NCBI GenBank assembly: GCA_038736825.1
Contig: JAVYME010000047.1
Coordinates: 1-6,010, forward strand
Length of the DNA stretch: 6,010 nt
Source: Candidatus Iainarchaeum sp.
GTDB lineage: Archaea > Iainarchaeota > Iainarchaeia > Iainarchaeales > DTGL01
Direction of reading: 5' to 3'
The position numbers were made by a program, and so were the translations under genes. The notes under the pieces are model-generated. The model ran no database searches, was not told where the DNA came from, and worked only from the letters and a program-made list of their open reading frames with translations. Positions 1 to 5,978 of the stretch are shown one piece after another. The first letter of the stretch is position 1; every line of letters begins with the position of its first letter.

Positions 1-649
1 CCCATACTCCGACTCCAAGGCCCCAGGCCTCTTCAGGACTGCAATTTTGTTTATATGTGCAGGGCTGGATTTGGTTGATTTCAGCCTCAGTATAAGTGTC
101 GCATGAAACGTTTGGAAGATAGCATTTTCCTCCGAGAAAGGATGCCGGGCTTGACCTCAAGCCGTGAATGTAAAACCGAACCATTTTGCCTGTCTTGTTG
201 TTTATGTAGTCTATTGTGTTGCCGATTTTTGTAAAGTCGTCGTCCATGCTTCCAGAAGTGTCCATGATGAAGTGGATTTCCACATTGGGCTGTGCCGTCA
301 CTTTAAGGTCGGGAATGTTCAAGTAATAGTTTTTTTCTCCATAAAAACCGTCAAACAATTCTTTCAATATGTTGTAGTCGTCAACTGTGTGGGGGCCGTA
401 CTGCCTTGAGCCGGCCCCGTAATAGGAATAGTTTGCGATTATTTCCCCGATTGTTTCCCCTGTTTGTGGTTCAACGATTTCGAGCAAGGCGTCAAAGCTT
501 TGCTCTAGGCGTTTTTCTTCAGCAAAGGTTTCCATGTCCCTGGTTGCCTGTGCAGCCTGGTTGAGCCTGTCCACTTCCACAAAAATCAGGGCTGCAAGGA
601 ACAAGCCCACAATGAATAATGCTGAAAGGATGTTTGATGTTTCAGCCAT
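1..649 (-). CDS. von Willebrand factor type A (vWA/MIDAS) domain protein with an N-terminal transmembrane helix; partial, C-terminus runs off the left edge
   Basis: This ORF is absent from the supplied track because it has no in-window stop. My manual minus-strand translation from the ATG at 647-649 stays open through nt 2 (216 codons): MAETSNILSALFIVGLFLAALIFVEVDRLNQAAQATRDMETFAEEKRLEQSFDALLEIVEPQTGETIGEIIANYSYYGAGSRQYGPHTVDDYNILKELFDGFYGEKNYYLNIPDLKVTAQPNVEIHFIMDTSGSMDDDFTKIGNTIDYINNKTGKMVRFYIHGLRSSPASFLGGKCYLPNVSCDTYTEAEINQIQPCTYKQNCSPEEAWGLGVGVW... A hydrophobic helix spans aa 7-24. A hydrophobic strand is followed by the DxSxS MIDAS motif (D130-T-S-G-S134, nt 248-262), an amphipathic helix, and a second hydrophobic strand (MVRFYIHGL). 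This is the canonical opening of a vWA fold. The ATG directly abuts the upstream TGA (TGAATG), and GTGA lies 7 nt upstream. Confidence 0.8.
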   Translation of the reverse strand, partial: MAETSNILSALFIVGLFLAALIFVEVDRLNQAAQATRDMETFAEEKRLEQSFDALLEIVEPQTGETIGEIIANYSYYGAGSRQYGPHTVDDYNILKELFDGFYGEKNYYLNIPDLKVTAQPNVEIHFIMDTSGSMDDDFTKIGNTIDYINNKTGKMVRFYIHGLRSSPASFLGGKCYLPNVSCDTYTEAEINQIQPCTYKQNCSPEEAWGLGVGVW

Positions 650-1417
650 TCATTTTTCACGCCCTGATTTGACAAAATAAAATATTATGAGAATTATGAA
701 AACTGCCGCGATGCCACCAATCAAGAGATAGTTGGTGTTGCCTTCAGGTTGCGGTGTTGGCGTGGGCTGTACTGTTTTTCCCGGGAAAACAGTTTCCTGT
801 CCTTGAATTGTTTGGGTTGGCTGTGGTGTCATGGTTTTCAGGCAGTCCGGGTCAACACCTCGCGCGCAGTCTGGGTCGCAATAAGTGTCTTCAAGCCAGA
901 CACATATTCCGTCCTCTTTGTCCATCGGGCAGTCCTTGCAGGAAAGAGCTGTTTCGTCTGGGTCACAGGCATTGTTTTGATTGCAAAGCCTTTCCTTTAC
1001 ATTGAATTCGAACGGCTTTTCAATTCCGTCGACTTTGACTGAAACCTTTTCTATTTCTTCTTTGTAGGGCATGAAGACATCCTTGGTTCCGGTGTCAGGC
1101 GGCTTTATTTCGTTATAGGGAAGGTTTTCGTCGAGAATGGAATAACTGTACAATATTTGTGGGGGAAAAAGGGCCAGCCTCACACTGTCAAGTTTTTGGC
1201 CTGAAGCGGAAAGAGTGGAGAGCGTGGCGTTTCCCGGCAATTCGTTCTGCGAGGCATAATCGTATAGGGTTTTGATGCCGGTTAGGTTCAAGCGATCAAA
1301 GTTCGTGTCGTAAGTGATTGTGAACCTTACCACCTTGATTTCGTCCTGCGCGAAAGCTACTGCAGTAAGGCAGAGCAGGAGTGCAATCAAAATCGCTTTA
1401 AATTTTTTTTTGTTCAA
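650..1417 (-). CDS. secreted, C-terminally membrane-anchored surface protein with an 8-Cys module and a Pro/Thr-rich stalk (hypothetical)
   Basis: The track ORF is 650-1480, but its first codon at 1478-1480 is GTG and it overlaps the upstream gene by 38 nt. An in-frame TTG at 1415-1417 lies 6 nt downstream of GGAGGG (1424-1429). It yields a textbook Sec signal, (M)NKKKFKAILIALLLCLTAVAFA|QDE. The mature protein starts with a beta-rich region. Next comes C-x5-C-x8-C-x2-C-x8-C-x7-C-x3-C-x7-C with repeated DPD(C/E) (nt 842-985). A P/T/Q-rich linker follows, TMTPQPTQTIQGQETVFPGKTVQPTPTPQPEG (nt 740-835). The protein ends with a TM helix, LLIGGIAAVFIILIIFYFV, and a basic tail, KSGREK. Confidence 0.75.
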   Translation of the reverse strand: MNKKKFKAILIALLLCLTAVAFAQDEIKVVRFTITYDTNFDRLNLTGIKTLYDYASQNELPGNATLSTLSASGQKLDSVRLALFPPQILYSYSILDENLPYNEIKPPDTGTKDVFMPYKEEIEKVSVKVDGIEKPFEFNVKERLCNQNNACDPDETALSCKDCPMDKEDGICVWLEDTYCDPDCARGVDPDCLKTMTPQPTQTIQGQETVFPGKTVQPTPTPQPEGNTNYLLIGGIAAVFIILIIFYFVKSGREK

Positions 1418-1423
1418 ATCCAA

Positions 1424-1429
1424 CCCTCC
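1424..1429 (-). promoter_or_regulatory. Shine-Dalgarno-like ribosome-binding site (GGAGGG) for the 650-1417 gene
   Basis: The minus-strand mRNA reads TAAAAAAAATTTGAATGGAGGGTTGGATTTGAAC. GGAGGG lies 6 nt upstream of the TTG at 1415-1417. It falls in the short gap after the TAA (1443-1445) of the upstream gene. Confidence 0.6.
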
Positions 1430-1442
1430 ATTCAAATTTTTT

Positions 1443-1874
1443 TTAGCCTTCAATTCTAATGGCTTTTGTAGCCTTGTCACACCTCACCTTTAGCGTGCTT
1501 GGAATCGTTAGGTTTGCTGGTGAAACCATTAAATTGCAGGTTTCACAGACATTGAATTTGTTGAAATCTGTTTCCAGGGAAAGCTTTGTTATTGGTTTCC
1601 CATAGTCTTTTTCTTCTGCATTCACTACGTGCACTATTCCGCAGTCCCTGTCCTCGCGCCCGAAATTGCAAGAGCGCCAGCAGTCTGAAACCATTCCCAG
1701 GAATGCATTGTAATTGATTTTTTGAAAGGTGTTTTGGTCCGCAGGCTTTCCACCCAGCAGTTGTGTGAGGTTTTCCTGCATTTTTTGAAAGTCAAAGCCG
1801 CCTATGAAGCCAATCACCAAAAAGCCAGCTATCACTGCAAAAAAGAAGAACACCAGCACTTCTATTACCTGCAT
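1443..1874 (-). CDS. small membrane or pilin-like protein: N-terminal hydrophobic helix plus a 6-Cys globular domain (hypothetical)
   Basis: The track ORF is 1443-1898, but its first codon is TTG and it overlaps the micro-ORF. The ATG at 1872-1874 is preceded by GGTGA (1879-1883) plus AAAA, which favours the shorter 143-aa form: MQVIEVLVFFFFAVIAGFLVIGFIGGFDFQKMQ... It has a single N-terminal hydrophobic helix. The soluble domain carries Cys residues in the pattern C-x3-C-x8-C ... C-x2-C ... C. The stop is TAA at 1443-1445. Confidence 0.7.
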   Translation of the reverse strand: MQVIEVLVFFFFAVIAGFLVIGFIGGFDFQKMQENLTQLLGGKPADQNTFQKINYNAFLGMVSDCWRSCNFGREDRDCGIVHVVNAEEKDYGKPITKLSLETDFNKFNVCETCNLMVSPANLTIPSTLKVRCDKATKAIRIEG

Positions 1875-1878
1875 TTTT

Positions 1879-1974
1879 TCACCATTTAAGCGCGCCAAGC
1901 GCGTAAATTATCAAGAGCGAGAGCGCAGCAAGCCCTATCAGTATTTCAATGATCTGCCAGGTCGTCCTGCTCAT
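1879..1974 (-). CDS. 31-aa hydrophobic micro-protein (candidate minimal pilin-like or Flp-like subunit, or a small membrane subunit)
   Basis: This ORF is not in the track. My manual translation gives ATG(1972-1974) AGC AGG ACG ACC TGG CAG ATC ATT GAA ... TGA(1879-1881), which encodes MSRTTWQIIEILIGLAALSLLIIYALGALKW. The ATG overlaps the FlaJ-like stop as ATGA. A strong SD, GGAGTGAT (1981-1988), lies 6 nt upstream. The next gene's RBS begins at this ORF's stop codon, so it fills the gap exactly. Confidence 0.6.
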   Translation of the reverse strand: MSRTTWQIIEILIGLAALSLLIIYALGALKW

Positions 1975-3866
1975 CCGCCCATCACTCCAGAGAAAACATA
2001 GTTTGTAAAAACAAATATTCCTAACAATAGCATTGAGCTGAAAACACCAAAGCCTGTCAAAAGAGTGCTGAAAATTGTTTTTCCAATTTTGTGCCTGTCT
2101 GAGCCGTATTTTATGTTTGCAAGGAAGGTTCCAAGGACCACAAGGGTCAAGATTATGTATACGCCAACTATTGCGAGCACAATGGTTGGCGGGATTATGG
2201 TTGAAGGATCAACAAGTTGCAGCGAGAAGTCTTTTAAGCCCACGCTTCTTGCAATGCCTTCTATTTCCTTGCTTATGAATTCAAGCGACATTACTATGGC
2301 TACTGCCATTATCACTGCAGTGGATGCAAGGATTGGTGCAAGCGCTTTGACTGAAACGCTTACAGTTGCAAATGTGTCGTTCAAGAGCGTTCTCAGGTAA
2401 TTATCAAGCCTGAAAATTGAAAGAGTTTGCGAGCGTATCATTTTCGCTGATTTTGCCGCACTCGCTATATCTATGTCTGCAAAGTGCACTATTCTGCGCA
2501 TTATTTGAACAAGCCTTTTTGAGGCAATTATTTCAGGCAGTTTTGTTTCAACAATTTCACCCAATGTTTTCTTGGTGTTATACAGTTCTTTGGTTATTTC
2601 ATTTAAGATTTTTACTACAGCGTGCTTTTTGAAGCCATGCCTAATATAATCGCTTTTCACATCCTGTATTATGCTTTCCATTGGCCTGTTCAATACAAGA
2701 TAACTGCTTATTATTTGGAGCAAGTGTGGAACATCTTCCTCTACCTCGTTCATTTCCTGCCAGGTTTTTTCATTCAAGGTAATGTACCTGAAAAGGTAAA
2801 TGGATATTCCTGCAACTATGCCAAAGAGCATGAGCCATACATTGAAGAGTGATTCAAAAGCATATTCTCTTGCCACCCCTGTTGGCGTGGACATATCAAC
2901 TTGCATGAAGTGAATTATTGCAGGTATTGCAAGTATTATCATAAACCCTGCACAAAGATAGGCAAAGCCTGGCGGCATTTTCTTGAATTTTGGTGACATT
3001 GAAAGGTCTATTGTGTTAACCTGAACTCTGTTCAATGCAAACTGCATTGCAAAAAGCATTAGCAGTGCCGGGCAGGAAACATTGTAAATGAAGATTAGCA
3101 TTGGCACATTTATCATATTGGGTAAAAAAATTGAAATTAGGGGAAGCATTATTAGCGACATCATTGGCAGCATTACCCCTATTGAAATCAGGCTTTTGGC
3201 TTGGTTTGAAAGGGTTTCAGTGGAACGCTTGCCGATATTGTAATAGCTTTGAATTATGGTTTTAATGCATTCCCTGAGCATTGGCTCCCTTTCCTTCAAT
3301 GGTGCCAAGGATGCTGTTTGAATCATGTTTAAGCCTTTCACGAATTCTGGGTTTATTTCCATCCATTTTGGAATGTATTCCTCAAAGGCTTCCCCCAAAG
3401 TGGAATATTTTTTGTTCTCCAGCTTTTGCTGGATGTCCCTGAATTGTTTTCCCATAGTGCCAGTAAGTCCTTTAGTGGTTTCAATGAAGGCAAATTCAAG
3501 GCTTGTGTTTAGGCTCAAATAATTGGCTATTTCAAGCAATGCTTGTAGCATTTCTTCTTTTTGCTTTAGAATGCTTTGAGTGTAATAAATGTTTGCACCG
3601 TAAAGGTAGGCGGCAAGCGGGATTAAGACAGAACCAAAAAAGAAAAGGTATGCCAAGAGCTCTAGCAAAGGATGCCCTGTCATGGCGTTCAATATATAGA
3701 AAAAAAAGCCTGTTAATCCCAGCCCTAAAAACCAGATTGTCAAACCTGAAATGAATTCTCCAGAAGTATAAGGAAATTCCACTTGCTGGAATTTTTTTTC
3801 CACCATAGAGGATTTCTTGAAGATTTTGAATTTTCTGCCTGTTTCGTAAACGAAATCAAAGTACAT
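1971..3866 (-). CDS. type IV filament platform protein, FlaJ/ArlJ / TadC / PilC (T2SS-F) family, polytopic membrane protein
   Basis: I count about 9 hydrophobic TM segments arranged as 2 TM, a roughly 130-aa cytoplasmic helical domain, 4 TM, a second roughly 135-aa helical domain, then 3 TM. The internal duplication typical of T2SS-F proteins is visible: IANYLSLNTSLEFAF (nt 3486-3530) aligns with ISSYLVLNRPMESII (nt 2670-2714). The gene sits immediately downstream of the secretion ATPase. The track start at 3920 is a TTG that overlaps the ATPase by 32 nt. The ATG at 3864-3866 (MYFDFVYETG...) follows the ATPase TAG (3889-3891) and is preceded by AGTGA plus AAAAA, so I prefer it (631 aa). The 630-650 aa fused two-domain size matches archaeal FlaJ-type proteins rather than the split bacterial TadB and TadC. 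Confidence 0.85.
   Translation of the reverse strand: MYFDFVYETGRKFKIFKKSSMVEKKFQQVEFPYTSGEFISGLTIWFLGLGLTGFFFYILNAMTGHPLLELLAYLFFFGSVLIPLAAYLYGANIYYTQSILKQKEEMLQALLEIANYLSLNTSLEFAFIETTKGLTGTMGKQFRDIQQKLENKKYSTLGEAFEEYIPKWMEINPEFVKGLNMIQTASLAPLKEREPMLRECIKTIIQSYYNIGKRSTETLSNQAKSLISIGVMLPMMSLIMLPLISIFLPNMINVPMLIFIYNVSCPALLMLFAMQFALNRVQVNTIDLSMSPKFKKMPPGFAYLCAGFMIILAIPAIIHFMQVDMSTPTGVAREYAFESLFNVWLMLFGIVAGISIYLFRYITLNEKTWQEMNEVEEDVPHLLQIISSYLVLNRPMESIIQDVKSDYIRHGFKKHAVVKILNEITKELYNTKKTLGEIVETKLPEIIASKRLVQIMRRIVHFADIDIASAAKSAKMIRSQTLSIFRLDNYLRTLLNDTFATVSVSVKALAPILASTAVIMAVAIVMSLEFISKEIEGIARSVGLKDFSLQLVDPSTIIPPTIVLAIVGVYIILTLVVLGTFLANIKYGSDRHKIGKTIFSTLLTGFGVFSSMLLLGIFVFTNYVFSGVMGG
1981..1988 (-). 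promoter_or_regulatory. Shine-Dalgarno-like site (GGAGTGAT) embedded in the last codons of the FlaJ-like gene, serving the 31-aa ORF
   Basis: The mRNA reads TCT GGA GTG ATG GGC GGA TGA, which is S G V M G G stop. GGAGTGAT is complementary to the conserved 16S 3' end AUCACCUCC. A 6-nt spacer (GGGCGG) separates it from the ATG at 1974. Confidence 0.6.
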
Positions 3867-3888: not shown

Positions 3889-5553
3889 CTATTTTGAGGC
3901 AAGCTGGATTGTTCTGTCAAATGCTTCTTTGAATTCTTTTTCTGCTTTAGGGCTTTCCAATGGCTCTATTTGTTCAAACAAGTCTGCAAAAATCATGTTG
4001 GCTTTGAGAACGCTTGCTCCTTCGAGTCTTTCCGGAAAAACCGATGAAAGCCCAACAAATTTTTGTTTTGCCCAAGCCCTGAGCTCAATGTCCTTTATGG
4101 CAGCATCATATGACTTGTATGCAAGGGTTGTTTGCAGTATGTTTTTTATTATTTCAGATTTTCCATTCAACAGCTCTTTTGTTGGCTCAAGTGAATCGTT
4201 TTCTTTGTTGTAGAGCATCAAGTCTTGGAATTTTGGCTCTTTTTCCCAGTCCTTTAGCACTTCAGTTACCTGCGTTACTCTTCTCACATGATGCATTCCA
4301 GTGGCAGACTTAATTTGTTTTATGATTATTATGAGGTCTGTTACTTTGAACGAACCCCTTGGAACACCTAAGTCGTTGACAACGCGATCAAATACCCCGT
4401 ATGGAGTGTCAGCATGAATTGTTCCAGCAACAGTATTGGACATTGCACCAACACGCATTGCCTCATATAACACTCTTGCCTCTCCAGACCTGACTTCGCC
4501 CAAAATCAGGCAGGAATTTCCAAGCCTTAAACAGGTTCTCAAGCCTTTTTCTGGGGAAATCTCCAATCCTTCAGGGGAAAGCGCAGACTTTACTTTAAAG
4601 CAAAGAATGTCATAACCAAAATCTTTGTAAGCGTTTATTGGCAGTTCCTGAGTGTCTTCAATTGTTATAATCCTGTATTTGGGCAATATTTCCAGAATAG
4701 TTGCCCCCAAAAGGGATGTTTTACCAGAACCCCTTGGCCCAGTAAACATCATTGTTCTGCCGTGTGTCACCATGAAAGACATTAGCCCGGCAAAGAACGG
4801 AGAGAGCGTATTGTTTGAAATGAACAATGGCAGAGTCCAAGGCTTTTCCCTATGACGCCTGATAGAATAGCCTATGCCGTGTATTGAGAAAGGTTGCACT
4901 ACAGCTGCAACCCTTGCCCTTTGTTTTTCCACTATTAGTTCAGCATCAAGCTGGGGTTGTGCTTTGTTCAACGGCCTTCCTGACTCTATTTTCAGGAAAG
5001 TGGCAAGATAGTTGAGCAAGTCTATTGATGGATAAATGTTGGAGCGGCATTCATCGAATTCTTCGTGGACTATTCTGAAAGAGCTTTGGAATTCTGGGGG
5101 GTTAATGTTTATTTCTTGTATTTTGGGGTCGTTCATCAAGTAATCCAGGATGCCGTGCTGTTTTATCCATCTTACAAGCAATGGTGTTTTCATTTCGCTT
5201 GACTCGTATTCTTTGTGCAATTCCAGTAATTGTTTTAAGTTCAAGTCAAGGTTTGGAATTTCTATTGTGTAAGTTGGCTCCAGGTTTTGTTTTTCTTGCA
5301 CTATTTTCACACTGCTGTCTTTTATGGTGTAAGATTTCAATACTTTGCCTTTCACTGGTTTTATAAGGCAGTCAACAAAAAAAGGATATAACACATAAGA
5401 GTCATCCGTTAAATAGTGTTGTTTTGTGAAAAGCTTGTTTTTGTAAACTATCAAGTCTGTTTCTTTTGATGGTTTCACGCACTTGCTGCATACTGCAAAG
5501 GAGATGTCTCCCAACCCCATGCAATTGTTGCAATCCCTTGTAATATAGTTCAC
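3889..5553 (-). CDS. type II/IV secretion-superfamily ATPase, archaeal FlaI/ArlI / PilB-like (VirB11/GspE/TadA family), with an N-terminal Cys4 zinc ribbon
   Basis: All family motifs appear in order. Walker A is FTGPRGSGKTSLL (G272-T279, nt 4717-4740). The Asp box is RIITIEDTQEL (nt 4642-4671). Walker B is SCLILGEVRSGEA (about nt 4480-4512). The His box is VAGTIHADTP. The upstream N-domain signatures are DPKIQEININ and RVAAVVQPFSIHGIGYSIRRH. The Walker A lysine is at aa 278, as expected from my recollection of FlaI-type proteins. The N-terminus carries C8-x2-C11-x10-C22-x2-C25. The start codon is GTG at 5551-5553, forming a GTGA overlap with the upstream stop. AAGAGG (5564-5569) lies 10 nt upstream. 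The stop is TAG at 3889-3891. Confidence 0.93.
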   Translation of the reverse strand: MNYITRDCNNCMGLGDISFAVCSKCVKPSKETDLIVYKNKLFTKQHYLTDDSYVLYPFFVDCLIKPVKGKVLKSYTIKDSSVKIVQEKQNLEPTYTIEIPNLDLNLKQLLELHKEYESSEMKTPLLVRWIKQHGILDYLMNDPKIQEININPPEFQSSFRIVHEEFDECRSNIYPSIDLLNYLATFLKIESGRPLNKAQPQLDAELIVEKQRARVAAVVQPFSIHGIGYSIRRHREKPWTLPLFISNNTLSPFFAGLMSFMVTHGRTMMFTGPRGSGKTSLLGATILEILPKYRIITIEDTQELPINAYKDFGYDILCFKVKSALSPEGLEISPEKGLRTCLRLGNSCLILGEVRSGEARVLYEAMRVGAMSNTVAGTIHADTPYGVFDRVVNDLGVPRGSFKVTDLIIIIKQIKSATGMHHVRRVTQVTEVLKDWEKEPKFQDLMLYNKENDSLEPTKELLNGKSEIIKNILQTTLAYKSYDAAIKDIELRAWAKQKFVGLSSVFPERLEGASVLKANMIFADLFEQIEPLESPKAEKEFKEAFDRTIQLASK

Positions 5554-5978
5554 TTGTTGGTCGCCTCTTTTTCTGTTTTCATGGAGCGCTCGTATTCTTT
5601 CAAATACTGCCTTGTCCTTTGCAGTCTTGAAACAAGAAGAGCATCCGCAGTGCTACCCATTTTTTTCTCTAAGACTTGAACACGACGGTCTATTTCCTCT
5701 GTCTCGCTTGTGAGATAGTTGAACAGTTCTGGTGCTCTAATACTGGCAAGCTTTCCAAAGCTTTTTTCAACTTCAGCCATTTCTTTTTTTAGCCTTTGAT
5801 AGTTTTTCATTGTTATATCTGAAGCTGAAAGCCCTTGCGCTATAGAGAAAACCTGCTTTATTTCTTTGGTTGAATTTGATACAAGAGTGAGCTTTGACGA
5901 AACAAGAGCAATCCTTTTCTCAAACTCTGCAATTTTTTCCTCTGCTTCCAGAGAAGAATAGGATTCGCCTGCAATCAT
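5550..5978 (-). CDS. hypothetical coiled-coil protein, translationally coupled to the ATPase; may extend beyond the right edge
   Basis: The 142-aa ORF is rich in E, K, L, R and Q with heptad-like stretches (EAEEKIAEFEKRIALVSSKL; RLKKEMAEVEKSFGKLAS; EEIDRRVQVLEKKMG; RLQRTRQYLKEYERSMKTEKE). It has no TM segment. The TGA at 5550-5552 overlaps the ATPase GTG. The reading frame upstream of the ATG at 5976-5978 stays open to nt 6008 (...RSKLKKIIAA-M), and no SD precedes that ATG. The true N-terminus may therefore lie outside the window. Confidence 0.6.
   Translation of the reverse strand: MIAGESYSSLEAEEKIAEFEKRIALVSSKLTLVSNSTKEIKQVFSIAQGLSASDITMKNYQRLKKEMAEVEKSFGKLASIRAPELFNYLTSETEEIDRRVQVLEKKMGSTADALLVSRLQRTRQYLKEYERSMKTEKEATNK

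Follow-up and report, generated by a model that had tools for sequence, protein, structure and literature searches.

The question raised by contig JAVYME010000047.1 is whether two consecutive small genes, one encoding 31 amino acids (aa) and the other 143 aa, produce components of a type IV filament (TFF) without passing through a prepilin stage. The window analyzed here is the whole contig, 6010 nucleotides (nt) of a metagenome-assembled genome (MAG) of a 'Candidatus Diapherotrites archaeon' (DPANN), and every one of its genes lies on the minus strand. A first-pass annotation of the letters had pointed out that the micro-open reading frame (micro-ORF) and the gene after it share an N-terminal Q-[IV]-I-E-[IV]-L-[IV] motif recalling mature type IV pilins, with no canonical class III (prepilin) leader. 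Our answer, to which we assign a probability of roughly 55%, is that the locus encodes a type IV filament machine of DPANN archaea in which some subunits are processed prepilins and others are 'born-mature' pilin-like proteins. The elements at its center are the following:

1879–1974, minus strand: micro-ORF of 31 aa, MSRTTWQIIEILIGLAALSLLIIYALGALKW, read from the ORF and its orthologues (ATG 1974–1972, stop 1881–1879)
1936–1956, minus strand: QIIEILI, residues 7–13 of the micro-ORF (Q7 at 1956–1954, Glu10 codon at 1947–1945)
1982–1988, minus strand: Shine-Dalgarno-like GGAGTGA, 7 nt upstream of the micro-ORF ATG and within the end of the platform gene
1443–1874, minus strand: 143-aa pilin-like protein, beginning MQVIEVLVFFFF (ATG 1874–1872, Q2 at 1871–1869)
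1851–1871, minus strand: QVIEVLV, residues 2–8 of the 143-aa protein (Glu5 codon at 1862–1860, V8 ending at 1851)
1879–1883, minus strand: Shine-Dalgarno-like GGTGA over the last micro-ORF codons and stop, 4 nt upstream of the 143-aa ATG

The motifs had been placed and read correctly, from Q7 of the micro-ORF (1956) to V8 of the 143-aa protein (1851). A word-indexed protein database contained only two close relatives of the latter, and the contigs of both encode the micro-ORF. The single platform protein found no relative when used as a query in a genome scan, whereas an alignment of 31 platform homologues succeeded and returned 33 loci from metagenomes and from Iainarchaeum, Micrarchaeota, and Woesearchaeota MAGs (individual loci carry L numbers below). 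The order coiled-coil gene, ATPase gene, platform gene, micro-ORF, and 143-aa gene is kept in about 30 loci, in Iainarchaeia, Micrarchaeota, and Woesearchaeota MAGs. In the window, the micro-ORF stop is followed by AAAA and then by the ATG of the 143-aa gene (a 4-nt gap), and the GGTGA/GAAGTGA arrangement recurs in L001, L002, L003, L011, L014, L016, L025, and L029.

The 143-aa family has no [KR]-[GA(S)] site before its helix, and for most of its copies a leader is impossible. For 23 of the 32 copies, the codons from the preceding in-frame stop to the family Met include no ATG, GTG, or TTG; the stop is found 1–5 codons upstream of this Met in 19/32 and directly abuts the ATG in L004, L011, L022, L023, and L035. 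An exhaustive profile search (E ≤ 1e-3) yielded 225 cluster representatives of the family (50% identity clusters), and among the best 150 of these, profile position 1 mostly aligned to the protein's own residue 1 (145 of the 157 sequences read). Because upstream starts are impossible in most copies and the alignments begin at residue 1, the family is, judged by sequence comparison, truly leaderless, with the signature Met1-[E/Q/D]-x-[V/I/L]-Glu5. The first-pass annotation had left open leaderless subunits, a non-canonical processing site, or a convergent helix motif, and the first of these options suits the 143-aa protein. Its N-terminus, MQVIEVLVFFFFAV, reads Met1-Gln2-x-Ile4-Glu5 and then runs into the hydrophobic helix. 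Across 27 locus copies, with identity down to about 20%, M1, E5, C110, C113, and P125 are the only invariant residues, and E5 is present in 129/152 full-length representatives. At position 2 of these sequences, E occurs 83 times, Q 39 times, D 11 times, and N 5 times (E/Q/D/N in 138/152), a distribution in which Gln is to be read as a subclade preference. Removal of a Met that precedes Gln or Glu by Met aminopeptidase is not expected, and the register is therefore Met1...Glu5 rather than Gln1...Glu4. EppA-processed Epd pilins carry a conserved Gln directly after the cleavage site, and the annotation had drawn this parallel for both proteins; it is rejected here, position 2 of the 143-aa family being mostly E and preceded only by the initiator Met, and Q7 being present in 8 of 23 versions of the micro-ORF.

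The connection to pilins is provided by other gene families of the same operons. Longer loci carry 6–10 extra genes with pilin-type N-termini between the 143-aa gene and a large adhesin-like gene. Some belong to families with a canonical class III leader ([KR]G|MEMAIQIFIVLFVLLAV, [KR]G|IYS.., and [KR]G|N[VA]..), and others begin with the helix itself (MEMPI.., MEQ[AT]VW.., and the large MxxV[S/E]N.. protein). The MEMPI family occurs in both forms: M(x)N[EA]KG precedes the Met in L004, L023, and L024, and a leader is impossible in at least 12 other loci. Orthologues of the two forms are located as follows:

L004 3778–4236, L023 11668–12120, and L024 12726–13181: leader-bearing MEMPI orthologues
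L005 12524–12913, L006 7938–8333, and L021 12430–12816: leaderless MEMPI orthologues

BLASTP aligned residues 6–149 of the L004 protein with residues 1–127 of the L005 protein (39% identity, E 1e-34). As residue 6 of the former falls on residue 1 of the latter, the MEMPI orthologues differ only in the leader, the leaderless form beginning at the +1 Met (MNEKG|MEMPI..). In hhalign comparisons, the 143-aa family matched MEMPI with a probability of 92.9% (E 3.8e-7) over 98 columns that include the head domain, and MEMPI matched the canonical [KR]G|MEMAIQIFIVLFVLLAV family with 98.2% (E 3e-14). Homology to class III proteins thus reaches the 143-aa family via MEMPI, the corresponding micro-ORF link standing at only 35%. 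These profile comparisons show the 143-aa family to be a paralogue of the pilin-like families in the same loci.

The micro-ORF begins on the stop of the platform gene (overlap ATGA), and similar GGGGGTG/GGAG motifs precede it in related loci, which together supplied 23 distinct versions, none with an alternative upstream start. The ratio of nonsynonymous to synonymous substitution rates (dN/dS) was 0.06–0.25 in most measurable pairs and 0.41 in one, with dN low and synonymous sites near saturation. Because dN/dS is low where dS is unsaturated, the micro-ORF is a real gene under purifying selection. On the opposite strand, a 65-aa ORF (window 1804–2001, plus strand) overlaps the micro-ORF and the first part of the 143-aa gene in antisense; related loci have similar ones, their own sequence is unconserved, and we treat the ORF as an artefact of A/T-rich third positions.

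The consensus of the peptide is M-[N/S]-[R14/K6]-[T19/S3/A1]-x-[W14]-x-[I/V]-[I/V]-E(19/23)-[V/I/L]-[I/L/V]-I-[A/G] (n = 23), that is, a short basic tail (M-S-R-T in the window), Glu10, and a single hydrophobic helix (residues 8–26 hydrophobic). Residues 1–4, M-[NS]-[RK]-[TSA], form its conserved part, and a cut between W6 and Q7, as the motif had suggested, would fall in the variable part (W6 in 14/23) and is rejected. Of the two residues that had been singled out across the pair, the Glu is kept in both families (Glu10 in 19/23) and the Gln varies in both. In Woesearchaeota-type loci (L027, L028, and L035), position 10 of the micro-ORF is Gly instead of Glu. Residues 3–4 are [RKQ]-[T19/S3/A1], with Gly never and Ala once, and depart from the [KR]-[GA(S)] leader pattern; the earlier observation that neither protein has a [KR]-[GA] site, and that no peptidase gene is in the window, was borne out. 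If the peptide is processed at all, [RK]-[TSA] at residues 3–4 would be the sole candidate site, and PibD reportedly cleaves leaders of as few as 3 residues (PMC10117864). The hhalign comparison of the micro-ORF with the canonical family places K3-T4 on K(-2)-G(-1) and E10 on Q/E(+6), at a probability of only 35%. Additionally, the micro-ORF N-terminus heads a 93-aa protein in L009/L026 and L012/L022, as well as a protein of at least 270 aa in L020; reuse before variable C-terminal domains resembles the behavior of pilin N-terminal modules. Pfam gave no Flp_Fap or any other match to the micro-ORF, which we read as a headless mini-subunit or a small machine component.

The motif that drew attention to the two genes bears on a further possibility, namely that it arose by convergence or chance in unrelated hydrophobic helices and carries no information on pilins. 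The two 21-nt stretches share 14/21 bases, with differences mostly at third codon positions or between I and V codons; the similarity is held at the protein level, as had been claimed, and a recent duplication between the two motifs is likewise rejected. Helices rich in I, V, and L are trivially alike, the Gln is unconserved in the micro-ORF family, and hhalign between the two families gave only 38%, in another register in which Glu does not fall on Glu, so that specific homology of the helices in the register first proposed is not upheld. On the other hand, the strict pattern Q[IV]IE[IV]L[IV] has 4 matches in 400,267 residues (six-frame ORFs of the window and 35 related loci) and, because all four fall in these two families, it is not a chance match. 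The Glu is kept in both families over deep divergence, and both genes are fixed in a TFF operon rich in pilin-like genes. For the 143-aa protein, the chain of hhalign family matches largely refutes convergence, which we consider very improbable as an explanation.

The 143-aa protein was modeled with AlphaFold2 (AF2). A first model from 11 sequences had a mean predicted local distance difference test (pLDDT) score of 74.8 and no PDB match; with 118 sequences, pLDDT rose to 92.2, and the prediction consists of a helix over residues 2–26 (pLDDT above 95) continuing as 29–40, followed by a beta-alpha-beta-alpha-beta-beta-beta head. The N-terminal hydrophobic helix of about 20 residues expected of a pilin is thus predicted here, and residues 8–26 of the micro-ORF are likewise hydrophobic. 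The lollipop-like order of elements in the model is compatible with a pilin, a fold that the model does not demonstrate. The head of the window protein contains C69, C110, C113, and C132. Since cysteine numbers are even in 98% of representatives (mostly four) and the spacing of the central pair varies (CxxC, Cx4C, or about Cx9C), the cysteines would fit extracellular disulfides better than a metal site.

Immediately upstream of the two small genes lies the putative motor, whose two parts are:

3889–5553, minus strand: type IV filament assembly ATPase of the FlaI/TadA/CpaF/GspE2 type (Pfam T2SSE, 1.5e-15)
1971–3866, minus strand: polytopic platform protein of 631 aa, divergent FlaJ/TadC/T2SSF-like, assigned from weak family matches, position, and size

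The ATPase belongs to the GspE/FlaI/TadA family of secretion ATPases expected of a TFF locus. In NCBIfam it matched FlaI at 2.4e-29 and TadA at 8e-29, both below the equivalog cut-offs, and the nearest solved structures are afGspE2 (2OAP), FlaI (4II7), and CpaF. It bears an N-terminal CxxC...CxxC extension (window 5470–5553, minus strand; RDCNNC...CSKC), which is kept in L011, L015–L023, L027–L029, and L035 and looks like a zinc ribbon specific to this ATPase clade. The platform gene always follows the ATPase gene in related loci. Within the platform family, 13 of 31 members weakly match Spore_III_AB (best 5.3e-7), none reaching the curated cut-off; a distant homologue (P0039) matches Pfam T2SSF at 1.4e-4, and the platform alignment found no relative among PDB sequences. 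The NCBI entries QXK06_05890 and QXK06_05885 are identical to the platform protein (P0004) and the 143-aa product (P0001), respectively. ATPase, platform protein, and many pilin-like genes together support the context of a type IV filament locus.

Several results weigh against filament subunits. No A24 prepilin peptidase gene is present in the window, nor was one found among the polytopic ORFs flanking about 30 related loci (±10 kb); these encode an Rce1-like protease, an ABC-2 permease, a Na/H exchanger, and other unassigned proteins, the GxGD motif being absent. Canonical [KR]-G| genes are found in the same operons, and a peptidase is therefore implied elsewhere in the genome. The micro-ORF has Thr at the would-be -1 position, outside the usual [KR]-[GA] cleavage context, and its link to canonical pilins is weak (35–38%) for so short a helix. 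For the 143-aa protein, no pilin family was matched in Pfam, NCBIfam, or PDB sequences; likewise, none of the small proteins encoded in the window or in L021, the most complete of the related loci, was assigned to a pilin family by Pfam or NCBIfam. Foldseek found no relative of the 118-sequence model in the PDB (best E 0.84), and no solved pilin was matched; since pilin heads are very diverse, we do not read the missing fold match as evidence against a pilin.

The charges at the N-terminus point in the same unfavorable direction. In the 143-aa family, residues 1–5 average 0 Lys/Arg and 1.7 Asp/Glu, compared with 1.5 Lys/Arg in the flank after the helix, and for such an acidic N-terminus the N-in topology required of a pilin is not what the positive-inside rule predicts. 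The 143-aa protein could then be a reverse signal anchor, N-out and C-in, in which the pilin-like N-terminus is only a membrane anchor and the four-cysteine domain, then cytoplasmic, coordinates a metal and interacts with the ATPase or platform. Four near-invariant cysteines, with CxxC in the window protein, would suit such a domain, whereas the widely varying central spacing suits disulfide-closed loops better. Mature pilins likewise lack N-terminal positive charge, and some MEMPI homologues have a basic class III leader, fixing the N-in topology. We regard the inverted orientation as a doubtful proposition at long odds. Met-Asp/Glu/Asn/Gln N-termini form the class modified by NatB-type N-terminal acetyltransferases in eukaryotes, and it may be speculated that acetylation of this residue-2 class (window 1869–1871) would neutralize the N-terminal charge.

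The gene arrangement also suits a fixed machine component equally well. The 143-aa gene is usually single-copy (two copies in three loci), stands beside the platform gene, and is closely spaced. On this basis, both proteins could be fixed bitopic parts that do not polymerize, like FlaF/FlaG of the archaellum or bacterial PilN/PilO and GspL/GspM, the conserved Glu pairing with a charged residue of the platform inside the membrane. Their invariable adjacency to the platform gene with overlapping or closely spaced starts and stops, a missing leader and hence no need of the pilin maturation pathway, and a head unlike any solved pilin all favor such parts. Against this stand the profile homology of the whole 143-aa protein to MEMPI, whose orthologues include a canonical class III leader, and a Met1...Glu5 register like that of mature type IV pilins; the micro-ORF N-terminus recurs as a module before variable, extracellular-looking domains, and sequence matches to FlaF/FlaG, PilN, or PilO are absent in Pfam and NCBIfam. 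Taken together, we judge the fixed-component explanation, the main rival, unlikely, while giving it serious consideration. In Woesearchaeota-type loci, two or three tandem 143-aa paralogues are found (L027 5143–6433, L028 12127–13699, and L035 9810–10679), and one database representative (P0048) is a tandem fusion.

With the filament machine of mixed subunits as the preferred reading, the 143-aa protein would enter the membrane as a 'born-mature' pilin-like subunit with no need of the prepilin peptidase, and the ATPase-platform motor would handle it through its N-terminal helix. The buried Glu5 may pair charges as Glu5 is known to do in bacterial type IV pilins. Because the gene is mostly single-copy and fixed beside the platform gene, with a spacing that suggests coupled translation, the protein would most likely serve as a minor or priming subunit, not as the bulk pilin. 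The micro-ORF would represent a headless prepilin-like helix with a basic tail of 4–5 residues and a Glu five to six residues further in, its N-in topology being suggested by the basic tail. It may remain unprocessed or be cut after residue 4 ([RK]-[TSA]|), and the cut would put the Glu at +6, a position occupied by Gln or Glu in the canonical pilins of these loci. A bolder claim, which we hold tentatively and at less than even odds, is that this widespread DPANN family of at least 225 clusters and several sister families of these operons are filament subunits translated 'mature', bypassing the prepilin peptidase, beside a mini-pilin of about 30 aa that is essentially a bare alpha1-helix. If true, neither membrane insertion nor hand-over to the platform would require the leader, which would have been lost repeatedly by a start-codon shift to the +1 Met.

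The rest of the window completes the operon, which runs from the coiled-coil gene through the ATPase, platform, micro-ORF, and 143-aa genes to a Cys-rich anchored protein and the start of a large protein. Its outer genes are:

5550–5978, minus strand: coiled-coil protein, 142 aa as read from the ORF list, first gene of the conserved block
650–1480, minus strand: 276-aa ORF, accessory surface protein with a Sec-type signal peptide, Cys-rich middle, Thr/Pro-rich linker, and C-terminal membrane anchor
2–649, minus strand: large pilin-like adhesin (candidate), first 216 aa, cut by the contig end, with the leaderless hydrophobic N-terminus MAETSNILSALFIVGLFLAAL

Homologues of the coiled-coil protein, located upstream of the ATPase in 13 related loci, are longer (186–253 aa vs. 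142 aa), and the window copy is therefore probably cut by the contig end; it had no significant Pfam match, and its stop overlaps the GTG start of the ATPase (GTGA). The true start of the 276-aa ORF is probably internal. Its Cys-rich segment is CDPDETALSCKDCP...CDPDCARGVDPDC, it gave a weak GG_III-CTERM match (E 0.035), and homologues occupy the same position only in closer relatives (L001, L011, L015, L017, L019, L021, and L025). The last gene of the window is a member of the MxxV[S/E]N.. family, with a DTSGS motif resembling a metal ion-dependent adhesion site (MIDAS); its full-length homologues measure 560–950 aa and contain a PKD domain (L011 13316–15484, L021 14589–17093, and L019 15125–17983), and an upstream start is absent in 10 of 11 family members. 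This large protein is a candidate tip adhesin, similar in concept to PilY1 or TadG. Among the related loci, L023 is labelled as a Chloroflexi bacterium and L028 and L030 as Methanosarcinales; they carry the DPANN-type operon with 39–46% platform identity and are probably mis-binned DPANN contigs. Bacterial promoter and terminator models run over the sequence gave counts not above those of shuffles and were uninformative.

To our knowledge, subunits are made as precursors and trimmed by a dedicated A24 peptidase in all type IV filament systems studied so far, and the class III leader with its peptidase is, as far as we know, regarded as a universal hallmark of the TFF superfamily. Here, a large unannotated DPANN family has the hallmark mature N-terminus (Met1...Glu5 and helix) as its primary translation product. 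A sister family with leader-bearing and leaderless members offers a natural experiment on what the leader is for, be it topology, timing, or quality control. The micro-ORF would illustrate the minimal size of a subunit, as no characterized pilin precursor that we know of is as short as its 31 aa. DPANN archaea rely on physical contact with hosts or surfaces, and a candidate for making it is the filament of this operon, which would include the large vWA/PKD adhesin-like protein. The signatures M-[EQD]-x-x-E, MEMPI, MEQxVW, and M-[NS]-[RK]-T could be used to annotate about 10 'hypothetical' gene families. The general idea is not new. Our literature search found no description of the invariant Met1...Glu5 signature, of an upstream-stop proof of a leaderless family, of a pair of leader-bearing and leaderless orthologues, or of a 31-aa member. 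A recent survey of archaeal systems counts the A24 peptidase among four core parts, gives no conserved N-terminal signature, and says nothing of Diapherotrites or Iainarchaeia (Sivabalasarma and Albers 2026 preprint), and DPANN were not covered by Makarova et al. 2016.

When compared to known systems, the archaeal TFF 'system 2' (2026 preprint; clade 2 of Makarova et al. 2016) differs in being described for Euryarchaeota. Two further groups resemble the locus in part. FlaF and FlaG (ArlF/ArlG) are membrane-anchored machine parts with an archaellin-like, uncleaved N-terminal hydrophobic helix. The proteins described here resemble them in sharing an operon with an ATPase and platform and in retaining the N-terminal helix. 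In contrast, the gene order differs, Met1...Glu5 is not a FlaF/FlaG feature, no Pfam or NCBIfam match places either protein in that family, and Foldseek matched the 143-aa model to no PDB entry. In Flp pilins, the leader is long and ends in Gly, and residues +5/+6 are an E-Y pair. The micro-ORF resembles Flp/Tad pilins and the headless Methanococcus Epd major pilin (arCOG06620) in its very small size and in lacking a globular head, and the ATPase of the locus matches TadA as well as it matches FlaI. Unlike Flp, the micro-ORF has a tail of 4–5 residues, no Gly before the helix, and a Glu followed by V, I, or L and never Tyr; with no Flp_Fap match in Pfam, membership in the Flp/Tad pilins is rejected. 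Sivabalasarma and Albers (2026 preprint) describe the Epd pilin as resembling Tad pilins in having no C-terminal domain.

The archaeal type IV pilins and other class III proteins (PibD/FlaK/EppA substrates, positive in FlaFind) are similar in that a FlaI-like ATPase and a FlaJ/TadC-like platform adjoin, in the N-terminal hydrophobic helix of about 20 residues with a variable head, and in the several paralogous subunits per locus. They differ in that the 143-aa family is leaderless and that residues 3–4 of the micro-ORF are [RK]-[TSA] rather than [KR]-[GA]. Glu at +5 is also not general among them, many archaeal substrates being without it (PMC3387779), whereas it is invariant in the locus copies of the 143-aa family. 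With regard to bacteria, the 143-aa head has no sequence or fold match to their pilins, and its N-terminus is a primary translation product. The bacterial pilin N-terminus arises from PilD cleavage and N-methylation, and TcpA, a type IVb pilin with Met at +1, has the mature N-terminus MTLLEVIIVLGIMG. Of the bacterial-type signature (Gly at -1, Phe/Met at +1, and Glu at +5), the 143-aa family has Met1 and Glu5, with Gly(-1) and cleavage absent by construction. What it shares with mature bacterial type IV pilins is the pattern of Met1, a polar residue 2, an aliphatic residue 4, Glu5, and the hydrophobic helix that follows.

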